Of a stretch of DNA of 64,000 nt, positions 12,001 through 48,000 are shown piece after piece (positions within the stretch are counted from its first letter, which is position 1; each line of letters begins with the position of its first letter). Made by a program: the position numbers. The DNA is from a virus (lineage: Duplodnaviria > Caudoviricetes). The DNA lies in the IMG/VR virus record IMGVR_UViG_3300020037_003256, positions 1 to 64,000 of that record. One strand, 5' to 3'.

Positions 12001-15000
12001 CAACACCAATGGCCCGGGCATTTGCTTGTACGTTATCTACACCAGATCGTCGAAGTTGGTCACGGAAAGTAGCTGCTAGCGTCTCTTGCATGCGATGACC
12101 GACAAACGGATGCAGTTCTCCCGTACCTTGCAACCGCCGCACTGTGTTTGCCATGCCGTAGCGTTCAATATACTCGCGGTTCGTATCACGCTGCCCGAGC
12201 ATTGTCTGTACGTCGCCTTCAGATACCACAGACATACCATTAGCACTCTTAGACCCGACCATCATTTGCGTAAATTCGCGATCGCTCATAAGCACAGAGC
12301 GAAGTCCGCCGCTACCTGTACTGAATTCAGTGGCACCGGCACGGACAGCAGCAGCATAGCGTCCAGCGTCCGTATTTGGATCAAATCCGCCCATAGACTC
12401 AGCCAAACGAGACGTTACGGCCATACGGTTGGCGGCATTCGAGCTAGCTGCCTGTACGCGTAGATTTGTATCTAACTGCTGGACCTGATCGGCACTCATT
12501 GCACCCCAAGCTGTATGTGCTGCGTGGCCTTGTGCACGATAAGCTCCGCCGAAAGCTAACCCGCCCTGCGTTGCCTGGATTGCAAACGTCGGTTCCAGTC
12601 CCATCTGCCCGGCACGGTTTGCCGCGTGCTCTTGGATCATGCGTACATTGTCCAAGGTAACGCCAGTCTGTTTCGCAAGATTGTACGTCTGGCGTACCAT
12701 CATGCTCATACGCCCAGGATCGAGCTGACTCATACTCCCCATAGTCAGCGCTTCAATACCTGCAATAAGTTCGGACATAGGTGCATTAGGCTTACCCATG
12801 TCACCAAAAATATCCCGCATAGCAGACACAACGTTGACGTACGATTTGACAGACCGCTTGATCTTATCCACGTCAAACGATCGCAATTTGTCAGCAACAC
12901 GGGGATCGAGTTGCAGCTTATCCAGATCCTCAGCGGTAAGACCACCAGGCTTATGCGGATTAACGCCCGTCGCTAAAGCCGCACGGTTTAAATCGTTTGG
13001 TGAAGACTGCCGCATATCTGCTATGGCCCGCATTGTGCCATATCGCGGATCATCGCCCCGGATACCGTAAAAACGACTAGATGCGGCGTCGGTAGCGATC
13101 ATACCGCGCATCTGCAATTCTTGAATCATGGACCCGACATTACCGGCACTAATACCTCGCATGGATGGCATAGTTTCCGGACTGTACAGATCGCTGTATA
13201 ACCTGTTCGTCATGTGGCCAACCGACTCCGCAGTCATGCCCATACGCCCACTAACAGGATCTATGCGATACCGTCCAGCTTCCATCATCCGTTTTGCAAG
13301 TACAGCGGAAGAACCCTTCATACCGCCCAACTGGTCCAAGAATTCCGGCATCATTTCGGCAAGTACTGGCGACATGGACGTCGCGGCGTTCGCTAAAGAG
13401 TAAGCCGCACGACGTTGCTCGCTGCCGAAGGGTGTGCCTGTGAATGTAGATAGACCGCCACGAAATGTTTTTACATACTCATCACGATCGTTTTGTGCGG
13501 CCATTTGCATGGCTTGCATTTGCATCATAGAGAATCGCTGACGCATTAGACGATCGTAAACGTTCTGGTCGTGTTCTAGCCCCATAGGGACCATACCGAC
13601 TTCACCCATCATACGTTGCAGCTTAGCTCCAGTAGCCATCGCGACGATGCTACCGAACTGACCCTGCGTAAACGGTAAGCCTTGAGTACCAAAGGCTCGG
13701 TGCGGTGTGTACCCAGTCGCCAACGGACGATAGCCCATCCCCGCACCGACCAGACTCGTGTAAGCCGGATCCACGTTTAGCCTCCATGCTATGTACGTAC
13801 GCTGCGATATTTCGCATCACGCTCTCGTAGCAGCCGATCGATTCTCTGGCTTTCCGTTTCTTTTGCCGTGGTTTCAGCCGGAGCCAGCGATCGCTTGTAA
13901 TCCTCCAGCAGCTTATTCGCGAACTCCGGATCGTCCGGATCACCAATAAGTTGCTTGTACTTTTCGATCAAACCTTCCAGCTGTGACTGCTGTGTAGCAA
14001 CAGCTTCTTTTGCTTCCCACGGATACTGCAGGTTGACGATATCGTCGAATAGCTCTTTTACCGTTTTCTGTACTGATGCGAACGACTTTTCAGTTAGCCC
14101 GCTATTTCCGACCAGAGATCGCTGAAGATCAAATGCCATACGAGCTACCAGCATATCATCTTCAGCTTCCATCGTCTTTATTAAGAGGTTGATGCGTCTC
14201 CACCAATTAACGTCGAGAATACGAGCTTTCGAGAAATCTATTATGCCTCGGGCCGCTGCACGCAACGTTAATATAGCGCCCCGGTCGGTTAGATAAAATC
14301 CTTATTGTCTGCCAGACTTTCGATCCGTCCCACTAGCCGATTGAAACTGTTGCAGGCCCGGTTGACTACGCGAAAGATGTTTTCTGTCTTAAGCACGTTC
14401 TCAATCATCCACCCTTCAATATCAGGCAGCCCGGTTTGCCCCGGGGACAACTCCCCTTCGTTTTCTGCCGTAACCCAGAAACCAGTCGCGTTCGGGTTCG
14501 TAGTAGGTGAGTACCCGTCCGGGAGTTCGTGAAACATGCCGCCAGCTTCTTTGTTCGACTTAAATGTTTGAATCTGTAGGAACAACCGATAACGGTTAAA
14601 CCGTTCGTAATAGTCCAACTCCGACTGACATTTGCCTGCTGCCTGGTCAGCAAAACACTGTGCCGTAACCGTATCTACTTCTCGCGTGGTCAGGGTGCGA
14701 AATACAACAGATACGGTACCGCTAAACAACTTGGTTTCCTGGGAGAACGGTTTCATGCCCAGAATACATTGCAAGAATGCTAGCTTCTCTGTGTGTGACG
14801 GCGCAGGCACGTCTGGGAGGGACAAATCCCACTCGCAGTGCGGGCAGTGTGTCAGGGTCACATGGGCGGCTCCGGTTTCAGAAACGGGTGCCGCGGCTGG
14901 ACGTTGTGCTTGTGGTTGTGCTTTTGGCTCTGGCGTTGTCTCTTGTGCCTTTTCCGCAAAATGTGTTTGCATTTTCATCGCGTTGACCGCTGCAGAATTC

Positions 15001-45000: not shown

Positions 45001-48000
45001 AATACTAGAAGAGTTCAGTCGCTCTTGCAACTGCTTCCGTAGATCTGCGTCGCCCGGTTGCGGCGAATTACGGCGAATAGCCCCGTCCAGCTCAGACTGC
45101 ATTGCCTGTTGTTGCGTCAACATATGTTGACGCATCGTGGATACTTGATCCCGATTATCACTCCACGGGTTCAGTCCCCAGAAATGGTAATTTAGCGGAT
45201 TATACCCGGTATTGCCGCGGAAGTTTCCGGCTTGGAGTTTTTGTTCAAGTTCTGCGTACTTCCCAGTATCCCCGGCAAGTCTTGCTTTCTCCATCTCGTC
45301 CCGAAGCGGTTTTGTCGCTGCATCGTATCTTGCATTGTTGTTGTTGTAGATATCCACACGTCGCTGATAAAGCTCTGGCTTAGGTCGATTAGCTTCTGAC
45401 GAACTGAACCATCGCAATGGATTAAAAGAAGTACCGGCTGTATTTTCAGCGTCATTGTCCAAGTGCGCCGCACCTACTGTGGCACCAAAAGGTGCAACCA
45501 CAGTTCCACCGATACGCTTCGCTGCAGACATCGCGCTATATTGATTACCGCCCACCTGCTTACCGCCTAACCACTTGAGCCCGGCACCAAGCCCCTTTAC
45601 CAGTCCAACACTGGCCGTTTTCTCCATACGCGAGATAAGCATGGTGTCAGCTGCGGCTTTTGCCAAAGTAGCAGATACCTGCGGAGCACTACCCAAGGTA
45701 ACAGGCGACTGCATATGGTCCGGCAATTTTGGTAGTGCCCTGTTAGCCAAAGCACCACCCATCCAATTTCCGTTGAAACGCCCAAGTGCCGTACCGCTGC
45801 CAATAGCCGTGGCTGCCGTAAGGCCTTTACCTAAACCACCCTTAAACTTAGCAGCGCTTTGCAACATCTTGTAAATAAGGGCAGCACCAGCCGTACCACC
45901 GACAGCCGTACCAGCCTGGCGTCCAGCAGAACGTCCACCTTCCAGCATACCTTCCGATTTGATTTGGTTTCGCATTAGCGCGTTTTGCCGTAACGCTTCT
46001 AATTTAGCCATTGAGCCAACAATATCTTCGTTAGCCATCGTGTTCCTCCTGAACGCTGATCTTAGATGAAAGTATACTCCACGGATTTACCAATCGCCAT
46101 AGCGTTAGTAACCAGGATCAACGATTTGCCGTCGCTGTAAACGATCGAGCATGCTGGCATCTGGTTTGCCGAAGTTGAAACCGCCTATGCCTGCAGCGGG
46201 TGGCTGCGTGTCCGAGAACGTAGGCGTTAGCGGCTGAATTAGCGGCGGAGGCCCTTGGGGCATAAACGAGAAGCGAGCCGGTGTATTGTCCGGTGGTGCT
46301 GCCCGCGGTGTTTGTCTACGTTTATCAGCTGCAATAGCGTCGTTAATTTCGAACGCCAAGCTCGTATTACCGACCTTGGCTGCCCGTTCGGCTAACTGCT
46401 GCAGCTGTGTCACCCTTTGCACATTGGCCGGGGTGCCGGGCGATAACTGCAAAGACGTTAGTTCTTCCCCTAACCACTCCTTGAACGCATCTTTGTCATA
46501 AGGACTCGCCGTATTGTTCAACACTTTATCTGCAACGCCCTTGCCGTGCTGTAGACGCACGTTTTTATACGTCTGCTCAGCGTCTGTCCGTAACTGTCGT
46601 TGCGTACTGAGATACTGTGCATTTGCTTTATCTCCGCCCCAGGCCTGATTTACAAACTTGTTGGTCGAGATATGCTTGGCGTCAGCGTCCTGCACAATCT
46701 TACGGTTACGTACTAGTTTCTCCTGCTCGTCTGCGGTTAGGACTCGGCGACGTGCTGCTTGCTCCAAGTACTGTACGTACGCATGGGCATGTGCCGCTTG
46801 GTTAATATCCGTGCGTTGGGCTTGTTCTTGGTTTGCGTTATGATTCTTCCATGTGTCTTGAAGCACTACGCTAGACGCGCCAATGTTAGCCCCGGGATTG
46901 ATAACGTTGTCCAGTATATTACCGGCGTTGTCCCATATCCCTTCTCGCGGACGCATCTTGTCTTCAAACTTAGCACGCAACTCATCATCAGAAGTCAGGG
47001 CTGTCATCGCAGTCTCAACGCCGATGTTCAGCAGCGGTACTCGTTTTGCTAAGTTCAAAAGTCCCTTACCCGCACGCTTCAGTGCTTCGTCTCTCGCTTT
47101 ACGGGCAATCTCTCGCTCAACTTTGTTACGGAACAAGTCACGAGCACCGTTGTACATCGGACGTACTAACATCCGGTGCACTGCGCTACCCGTGACGGGC
47201 GAGGCCCAGGCGTGAAGAGATTTCTGCCACCACGAATTAGCTCCCTTGGCTTCTTGCAACAGTTCGTAATCCGATACGTCGCCCTCCGGTGCAACATTTG
47301 TCATCAGATGTTGCATCACGTAGTCATTAGGTACGCCCGTGGTCTGAAACTCTCTCAACTCTTGTACGGTCTTCTCCATCTCCGGAATATCCGGATTCGC
47401 AGGCTCGCTTGCCTTGAGCTGCACTATTTGTTCCTGCAGATCCGCGATTCGTTTACCTGGGTCGCCGCCAACCGTTTGCAGTATCTGCCCATTCAGCTGC
47501 TTACGCGTCTCTTCGAATTTTGGCTGCCCCGGTTCGTATCCGTTCTTCTTAAGCAGATACGCACGACGCGCGGAATCCATCATTTTCTGTTGCGCTTGCT
47601 GATCCGTAGTATTCGCACCTAATGTCGCCTTGAAAGCATCAAACTGTTTGTTGCCACTTTCCCATCCGCTCATCTTCGCAATCTGTTGAACAAGTGCATC
47701 AGGTTGCGATAAGTTGGGAACAGCAGTAGGAACTATTGGCGGCAGCGCCGGAGCCTGTGGTTTTGCCTGCATGGCATTAGGCTTCGCAGGATCGTTTTGT
47801 TGTCCAAGCAATCCGTTCCATTTCGGGACGATGGCGTCATTGTCTCCGATCAAAGAATCAGACCCGTCACCGAATTGCCGTGGAGCTCCGTTCTGCCCGT
47901 ACGTTAACGAAGCAACAGCATCGCTATCGAGCAACGAGCCGAATCTCGCGATGTCTCCAAAGTGCCCACCGAAACCCGATCCCGGGTTATTACGATCACC

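Follow-up and report, generated by a model that had tools for sequence, protein, structure and literature searches.

The window analysed here is a stretch of 64,000 nucleotides from the 219-kb genome of an uncultured phage, whose genes lie nearly all on one strand and which encodes the beta and beta-prime subunits of an RNA polymerase; the mReC phages (PMC7481178) encode such subunits of a clade to which these two may or may not belong. Close strains of the phage were seen in contigs from sequencing runs, and none of the sequencing-run matches listed was an RNA dataset. The nearest cultured relative found is Salmonella phage Arash (OQ632216; PMC10585845). The head and tail genes of interest, and the hairpins at their Shine-Dalgarno (SD) sequences, are given in Table 1. 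Pfam and PHROGs supplied no name for any head or tail protein whose gene bears a hairpin, and the identities were taken from profiles against Arash, ESM Atlas matches and one fold. The tube protein matches the Phi812 tube and T4 gp19 families in the ESM Atlas, and the probable sheath protein is a homologue of Arash gp236 (E 4.5e-75), with sheath families as a further, tentative lead. The best fold matches of the decoration protein are phage capsid entries, the top one being the TW1 capsid-stabilising protein at an E of only 0.015. The 889-aa protein is a homologue of the Arash virion protein gp218, and the 1872-aa product is the probable tape measure, judged by its size and position. Profiles of the sheath, tube and decoration proteins against PDB sequences gave nothing useful, and a single-sequence fold of the portal protein was discarded as unusable (pLDDT 37).

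Table 1. Predicted CsrA sites and the csrA gene (coordinates are those of the window, or of the genome contig G000:C1 for features beyond it)
Feature	Position	Strand	Gene or remark
4-bp ANGGAN hairpin over SD of probable tape-measure gene	13778..13791	-	gene 8156-13774, 1872 aa
Consensus CsrA site, 2-bp stem, over tail tube SD	19014..19023	-	gene 18479-19006
5-bp ANGGAN hairpin over SD of probable sheath gene	21974..21989	-	gene 19110-21968
5-bp hairpin over SD of 149-aa gene, tail-fibre region	30692..30707	-	gene 30239-30688
Consensus site, 2-bp stem, over major capsid protein SD	33471..33480	-	gene 32521-33462
Second capsid-leader ANGGAN hairpin, 3 bp, non-SD	33492..33503	-	poorly conserved
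Consensus site, 2-bp stem, over capsid decoration SD	34087..34096	-	gene 33551-34078
Imperfect hairpin over SD of 156-aa K-x-A-rich head protein gene	34616..34631	-	gene 34140-34610
4-bp A-U-closed hairpin over SD of probable scaffold gene	36007..36020	-	gene 34684-36000
5-bp hairpin over SD of 507-aa K-x-A-rich head gene	40393..40408	-	gene 38864-40387
3-bp C-G-closed ANGGAN hairpin over SD of 889-aa gene	44627..44638	-	missed by the preliminary description
4-bp hairpin, CsrB-type five-base AGGAG loop, over SD of 455-aa gene	46042..46054	-	gene 44671-46038
csrA own-SD hairpin, beyond window	G000:C1 65452-65465	+	matches virion-gene hairpins
csrA gene, beyond window	G000:C1 65467-65643	+	58 aa, PF02599
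Portal SD hairpin, beyond window	G000:C1 126299-126314	-	80 kb outside the stretch 13778-46054

A preliminary description of the window had placed the SD sequences of its structural genes in the loops of CsrA/RsmE-type hairpins. Every sequence that it cited can be found on the minus strand, a start codon following 11-14 nt after the GGA. The hairpins themselves proved uneven: those of the tape measure, sheath, 30688, scaffold, 40387 and 46038 genes stand as described, the last with its shorter loop, while the 34610 stem carries one C-A mismatch, and for the capsid, decoration and tube genes, which keep the linear consensus on a minimal stem, the word hairpin was an overstatement, the short pairing being already implicit in the way that description spelled these sites. 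When 76 nt of each leader were folded, only the hairpins of the 30688 gene (P 0.96, the best-formed site), the tape measure (0.54) and the scaffold (0.48) were well populated, and in the sheath, 34610 and 46038 leaders alternative longer helices can take in the SD.

Across the whole genome, 18 SDs sit within hairpins that have an ANGGAN hexaloop, where permuting the 5' arms among the GGA-type SDs of the phage itself predicts 2.2 (p=0.001); a stricter rule gave 14 hairpins against 1.1 in the same genome. Among the registers compared, the hexaloop register had the most matches, and five-base AGGAN loops showed no enrichment in this phage (3 vs 2.0). ANGGAG was set on a stem of at least 4 bp in 13 of 43 cases at SDs, as against 2 of 145 within coding regions (p=7e-8). 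The GGAG and the closing G belong to the SD, so about two hairpins per genome are to be expected by chance, but the permutation, the coding-region control and the covariation described below reject for the site set the idea that strong GGAGG-type SDs generate such hairpins by accident, which we regard as extremely improbable. Individual sites, for example those at 172958 or 81265, may nevertheless be chance products.

As the preliminary description had anticipated, structural and other genes differ: hairpins are found at the SDs of 10 of 39 genes of the virion block and 14 of 191 others (p=0.002). The bias is real, yet it is not exclusive to virion genes. Some non-virion genes, including a caspase-like and a cupin gene, also carry hairpins; the replication genes have none, and many virion genes are without a site, among them the probable protease gene at 36054, baseplate J and genes of the tail-fibre region.

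In the capsid leaders, CANGGANG occurs in 50 of 60 unique relatives, with a stem of at least 3 bp in 41, and the decoration site is retained in 42 of 60, with stems of up to 7 bp; capsid, decoration and tube orthologues often have stems of 3-7 bp where this genome has 2 bp. A C-closed site is present in 16 of 31 sheath leaders, the hairpin of the 889-aa gene recurs in 5 of 9 whole genomes and the 34610 site in 26 of 59 relatives; the 40387 site (1 of 59) is lineage-specific. The second capsid site likewise exists, so that this capsid leader does hold two ANGGAN sites, but a two-site arrangement finds little support as a general feature: just 4 of 64 relatives have a hairpin counterpart. Leaders with more than one site number 4 of 64 for the capsid and 6 of 62 for the decoration gene, and neighbouring genes are alike in this respect.

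Comparison of the relatives shows covariation in the hairpins of the capsid, decoration and sheath genes. In the capsid leaders 72.8% of cells are paired, compared with 53.6% after shuffling, and none of 500 shuffles reached the observed value; pairing peaks at register 0, with 38 double-changed cells. An independent-pairs test on a tree, run for one stem pair, yielded only 2 pairs, concordant where they differ and too few for significance. The C at -3 is retained in 46 of 49 capsid leaders. This base is not complementary to the anti-SD of the 16S tail, and SD pairing therefore cannot account for its conservation. The register-specific enrichment and the covariation together define an ANGGAN hexaloop on a short stem with C-G closure, and the loop and its AC...GU closure agree with the SELEX and NMR description of CsrA sites (PMC7652899).

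These features also bear on the idea that the sites have no CsrA reader at all and serve instead as structural enhancers displaying the SD, or as targets of some other protein or of a RegB-like GGAG nuclease. Display of an SD in a loop can indeed help initiation. Loop length is nevertheless fixed at six, the first base is A and the closing pair C-G, which is the exact CsrA consensus, and the 2-bp sites retain their sequence, pointing to recognition by a protein more than to stability. The nuclease, raised at first as an alternative, found no backing, since the phage gave no match to PF10715 at E<=1 (a very remote RegB homologue could escape this search) and RegB would explain neither the C-A before the GGA nor the co-occurring csrA. 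We hold sites without a CsrA reader to be improbable.

The statement that no csrA gene lies within the window is correct, although such a gene starts 1,467 nt past its end. Its product matches PF02599 over positions 1-52 of 53 with 73.8 bits (cut-off 27), the frame contains no stops, and the match to 2jpp has an E of 6e-11. L4 (beta1), R6 and R44 (beta5) are intact and invariant in our alignment A2; L4 and R44 are important for RNA binding by CsrA (PMC7652899). The gene is carried by 23 of 25 near-complete relatives, and the hairpin at its own SD is found in 10 of 31 csrA leaders of the clade, whose sites covary. A sigma-70-like promoter precedes 26% of these csrA genes and 4% of all genes; no clear one was found upstream of csrA in this genome. 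A search of the genome for partner factors gave no FliW (PF02623), no Rfam match except one tRNA, and no intergenic group of at least three GGA hairpins of the CsrB kind, so that of the csrA gene and GGA-rich RNAs proposed as objects of search only the first was found; the host may supply a sponge RNA.

Of 12 whole genomes with csrA, 9 had hairpin enrichment at p<=0.005. Enrichment was not significant in the csrA-positive G003, G044 and G008 (p=0.059 in the last), and in G046 the hairpins sit on non-core genes. Two csrA-less comparators, G047 and Arash (137 kb examined), had no enrichment. Arash shares homologous capsid, portal, terminase, sheath, sigma factor and RNA polymerase with our phage and differs from it in capsid identity (~28%) and in the absence of csrA. 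Since the csrA-less comparators are only these two, both distant, the joint presence of csrA with sites is phylogenetically weak. A third genome, G009, was dropped as a csrA-less negative when a degenerate CsrA-like ORF was found in it; it retains a reduced site set alongside that gene.

The preliminary description had proposed a host or phage CsrA-family protein, possibly a host-state sensor, and control of virion translation by this family now has strong comparative support from the intact csrA, its presence in nearly all near-complete relatives, the covariation and the lack of enrichment in the two csrA-less comparators, though not as a feature exclusive to structural genes. It could be that host CsrA mainly reads the sites, so that virion synthesis would report on the state of the host, with the phage csrA aimed at host mRNAs, a role put forward for phages of Pseudomonas and E. 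coli, or topping up the pool. CsrA proteins throughout the family share their specificity, so one made by the host would bind these sites too, and the host may well have one: the nearest bacterial CsrAs, many of them from Planctomycetota, are only 45-62% identical to phage CsrA. Some csrA-positive relatives have no sites, so that phage csrA can persist for another purpose, and published phage csrA genes have been interpreted as directed at the host (PMC7546807, PMC11879866). Against this stand the near-core status of csrA in the clade, the lack of enrichment in both csrA-less genomes, the covarying sites in the leader of phage csrA itself and the reduced site set kept by G009 with only a degenerate gene. 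From these comparisons phage CsrA now appears the better candidate, and reading chiefly by the host seems unlikely.

The phage thus probably controls at the post-transcriptional level how its particle proteins are made, through the predicted CsrA sites. More specifically, we think it fairly likely that a phage CsrA regulon keeps the major virion proteins from being translated for as long as CsrA is not outnumbered by late mRNA. The 58-aa CsrA, made early, would bind as a dimer to ANGGAN loops over SDs and block 30S loading, ribosome exclusion by an SD-overlapping site being expected from established CsrA biochemistry. Its targets would for the most part be high-copy virion genes, namely those of the capsid, decoration, sheath, tube, scaffold and head proteins, tape measure and portal, with csrA itself and a few accessory genes in addition. 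In an almost one-stranded genome CsrA could restrain premature or read-through virion translation, autoregulation would buffer its level, and abundant late mRNA would titrate it and so bring release. The outcome would be a threshold timer or a dosage limiter. Against this reading count the csrA-positive genomes without significant enrichment, the non-core placing of the hairpins in G046, the virion genes that lack a site and the other genes that have one, the want of a clear promoter before csrA in this genome, and the searches for a release factor, which yielded neither a CsrB-like cluster nor FliW. We offer more tentatively, at somewhat short of an even chance, the extension to a widespread clade of large phages encoding RNA polymerase, in which a captured CsrA would form a self-contained, autoregulated switch for virion assembly, released, for want of sponge RNA and FliW, by late-mRNA titration and in some members built as a single-chain tandem CsrA.

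The sign of the effect could in principle be the reverse, with CsrA activating or stabilising the mRNAs, by blocking a nuclease or keeping the SD from competing structures, and so boosting the proteins most needed. The targets are the virion proteins in highest demand, the SD can enter the longer helices noted above in three leaders, and CsrA activation is known for flhDC, moaA and ymdA (PMC7652899). Activation there proceeds by SD exposure or 5'-end protection, whereas the GGA that CsrA would bind in this phage is itself the SD, and its position at -11 to -14 gives the geometry of repression; we give activation little credence.

The analysis supplies specific, conserved candidate targets on the phage's own genome for the question of why phages carry csrA, which can now be approached experimentally with a 58-aa protein and short RNAs. 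A 2025 paper describes csrA's part in the phage life cycle as previously untested, host targets being assumed (PMC11879866), and a literature search that took in few subscription papers brought up no account in which the SDs of virion genes are targets of a phage CsrA. If the repression proposed here is real, a translational layer would be added to late-gene control in large phages. The hairpin also serves as an annotation aid, having flagged the portal gene that Pfam and PHROGs missed.

Repression by CsrA/RsmE in bacteria (RsmE-hcnA, 2jpp; E. coli CsrA-glgC; PMC7652899) shares with the phage system the protein family, the ANGGAN hexaloop, the short stem, the SD overlap and candidate autoregulation of csrA. 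Unlike those systems, the phage genome holds both the protein and its targets, which are virion genes, its leaders have mostly one site, and neither a CsrB/RsmZ-type sponge nor FliW was found with them. Among phages, Sobrero and Valverde list 30 csrA carriers (PMC7366521), and bci of AUS531phi (PMC7546807) and gp28 of PTXU04, whose knock-down gives smaller plaques (PMC11879866), are described cases; these genes are read as acting on the host, in quorum sensing or immunity, and the accessible text reports no phage mRNA targets. The present case differs in that the cis sites lie on genes of the phage itself and recur within a clade; in the first 50 kb of PTXU04 no such hairpins were found on virion-gene SDs. 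A bacterial parallel in purpose is the CsrA-FliW control of flagellin (hag) in Bacillus subtilis, cited in PMC7366521, in which CsrA limits a high-copy structural subunit during the assembly of a large structure. Phage CsrA, at 58 aa, is without the extended C-terminus that binds FliW, and it would have many targets instead of one.

Phages have translational repressors of their own, such as T4 RegA, the autogenous control of gp32 and gp43 and the MS2 coat-operator hairpin, and T4 late genes have SD-sequestering hairpins. The T4 and MS2 repressors similarly time or dose phage genes by blocking the ribosome-binding site. They rely on phage-specific proteins or on RNA structure alone, in contrast to the captured bacterial global regulator proposed here, and where the T4 hairpins bury the SD in the stem, those of the present phage display it in the loop.

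The preliminary description found no csrA gene in the window, which is true of those bases (1-64000 of a virus record of 219,270 bases, 98% complete), but the same phage encodes csrA 1.5 kb past the window end. Its product has no long C-terminal tail and retains L4, R6 and R44. CsrA prefers GGA in six-base loops of short stems, makes contact through L4 and R44, often represses through ribosome exclusion, and autoregulates its own translation (PMC7652899). The csrA SD itself lies in such a hairpin, and comparable own-SD stems, differing in sequence, are present in 10 of 31 phage csrA leaders. 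Among relatives of at least 90% completeness, 23 of 25 carry csrA. One csrA leader (L089, genome G030) has six GGA motifs in the 55 nt upstream of the gene, which makes it a candidate for autoregulation at several sites. L094 (G005) and L101 (G010), where csrA begins at 1501 in gene orientation, encode CsrA-CsrA tandem fusions of 163 aa and 142 aa, respectively, that could be single-chain dimers.

Coordinates of features in the phage genome (contig G000:C1; the first 64,000 bases are the window)
Feature	Position	Strand	Remarks
csrA, 58 aa	65467-65643	+	E 2.6e-21
csrA own-SD hairpin	65452-65465		csrA leader; 4-bp stem, ANGGAN
Major capsid gene	32521-33462		profile match to Arash capsid, E 2e-43
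Portal gene	124353-126296		profile match to Arash portal, E 4e-92
Portal SD hairpin	126299-126314	-	outside window
Homologue of Arash gp236	19110-21968		profile match
A-tract palindrome, copies in window	3645, 7227, 23891, 30206, 36209, 50484, 59868		

All the SD-hairpin sites previously cited at structural genes were found, with GGA 11-14 nt upstream of the start. The pairing described for them holds, at 4-5 bp, for the tape measure, sheath, scaffold, 30688, 40387 and 46038 genes (numbers are gene-start coordinates), but shrinks to 2 bp at capsid, decoration and tube; a mismatch interrupts the stem at 34610, and the 46038 loop has five bases. When 5' arms were permuted among the 179 GGA-containing SDs of the same genome, 2.2 hexaloop hairpins were expected against 18 observed (p=0.001), and in the virion block (651-46038) 10 of 39 genes carry a site versus 14 of 191 elsewhere (p=0.002), a conservative figure because "elsewhere" contains portal, terminase and csrA. 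Stems of at least 4 bp accompany 13 of 43 ANGGAG words at SDs versus 2 of 145 within genes (p=7e-8). In this genome no site was found at the DNA polymerase, primase, RecA-like or SbcC-like genes, nor at the probable prohead protease, baseplate J and most tail-fibre-region genes. The preference for virion genes is not exclusive, with sites also on a cupin gene and a caspase-like gene. The latter, a peptidase gene at 73205-74011 (L112:9205-10011; PF00656, E 5e-22), bears a 4-bp CsrA-type hairpin here and in G001.

Genes were called with a custom hexamer-plus-SD script, cruder than a standard gene finder, which scored SD matches and left hairpins and the upstream C-A unscored; nearly all calls are on the minus strand. 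Among cultured phages, the closest relatives found were Salmonella phage Arash and three Vibrio phages (capsid identity about 27-28%). Profiles built from ten genomes and compared with Arash proteins identified capsid, portal, terminase and the homologues of gp236 and gp218 (889 aa). The tape measure and scaffold genes were assigned as probable on the basis of size and position. A 175-aa gene at 18479 is similar to tail tube genes, and the 952-aa gene resembles a sheath gene, as a lead only. The 175-aa product at 33551 has a confident predicted fold (pLDDT 87) whose top structural matches are phage capsid entries, the TW1 capsid-stabilising protein first, albeit with an E of 0.015. The K-x-A motif of head proteins is abundant in the products of 34140, 34684 and 38864; it is strongly enriched in several head-module proteins (31586-40387) and one distant gene (181188-182414). 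In a close strain (sequencing runs X1 and X2), 6 bases are missing close to the 3' end of the gene for the 156-aa head protein (34152-34158). A long array at about 93500-115500 consists of small paralogous genes that have an N-terminal T-S-Y-G-like motif in common, and a tRNA (89121-89193; L113:5121-5193) is the sole Rfam match in the genome.

Across 80 related loci, counted over unique leaders, a C-closed site occurs on the SD of capsid in 50/60, decoration in 42/60, 34140 in 26/59 and sheath in 16/31, compared with 0/64, 1/59 and 1/61 at three neighbouring genes. In the 5-bp capsid structure 72.8% of cells are paired versus 53.6% in shuffles, none of 500 shuffles being as high; double-changed cells number 38, and every slid register scores lower. 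For capsid and decoration, pairs 1-5 exceed shuffles and pair 6 does not. These conservation and covariation counts ignore relatedness, and the tree-based test, covering one pair, was underpowered. The second, upstream capsid-leader site noted earlier is present in 4 of 64 relatives and is not a conserved feature.

Hairpins are significantly enriched in 9 of 12 csrA-positive whole genomes; no enrichment was found in csrA-less G047 or Arash (137 kb examined). G009, with a degenerate CsrA-like ORF, keeps only a few sites. That ORF (L138:11092-11466, 124 aa, without a match in Pfam) shows a weak alignment to the L101 tandem CsrA, retains a beta1-like N-terminal and an R44-like C-terminal motif, and is possibly a one-site single-chain CsrA. 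Among csrA-positive genomes, G003 and G044, which carry some of the more divergent csrA genes, are not significantly enriched, and G008 gives p=0.059. In G044 and G046 (L070-L076) and G003 (L004) the core virion genes lack hairpins; those of G046 lie on non-core genes, which suggests regulon rewiring. Given these exceptions, the joint occurrence of csrA and sites is suggestive rather than strict, the csrA-less comparators being few and distant.

The earlier proposal of CsrA-family control of virion genes finds partial support and can be narrowed to a CsrA encoded by the phage. Since the sites fit the CsrA preference and fall on the SD itself, they would most likely serve repression. Sigma-70-like promoters stand before 26% of phage csrA genes versus 4% of all genes, an excess that hints at early expression; no clear one was found before csrA in this genome. 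CsrA made early would silence stray virion-gene mRNA, and in the simplest model late, abundant capsid and decoration mRNA would titrate it, setting a threshold. No sponge RNA or FliW was found in the phage genome. Nor was RegB, the nuclease offered as an alternative reader of the GGAG sites. These sites would be equally readable by a host CsrA, which may act on them instead; many of the nearest bacterial csrA genes are from Planctomycetota, which does not establish the host.

The phage also has genes for RNA polymerase subunits and for a sigma factor (4417-5172, 46105-50463 and 52126-57372 taken together); the polymerase is split over at least three ORFs, and the sigma factor gene sits within the tail-gene block. 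A perfect palindrome of six A, CG and six T, a candidate phage promoter or operator, occurs 17 times in the genome, often 18-60 nt upstream of a start codon; the exact form was not found in 14 other genomes examined, and G005 has 26 copies of a looser form.

Phages carrying csrA are known, 30 being listed in 2020 (PMC7366521). The gene bci of AUS531phi alters host quorum-sensing traits (PMC7546807), and knock-down of the csrA homologue of PTXU04 gives smaller plaques, its authors calling the role previously untested and proposing host targets (PMC11879866). No comparable sites were found on PTXU04 virion genes (first 50 kb; 58 leaders checked). The only strong CsrA-type hairpin among those leaders (5 bp, near 35869 in L340) precedes gene 36, a candidate target of the homologue, gp28. 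The literature searched yielded no description of a phage-encoded CsrA whose cognate sites lie on virion genes of the phage itself: the protein and the site are of the textbook kind, and their wiring to the phage's own virion genes is new.
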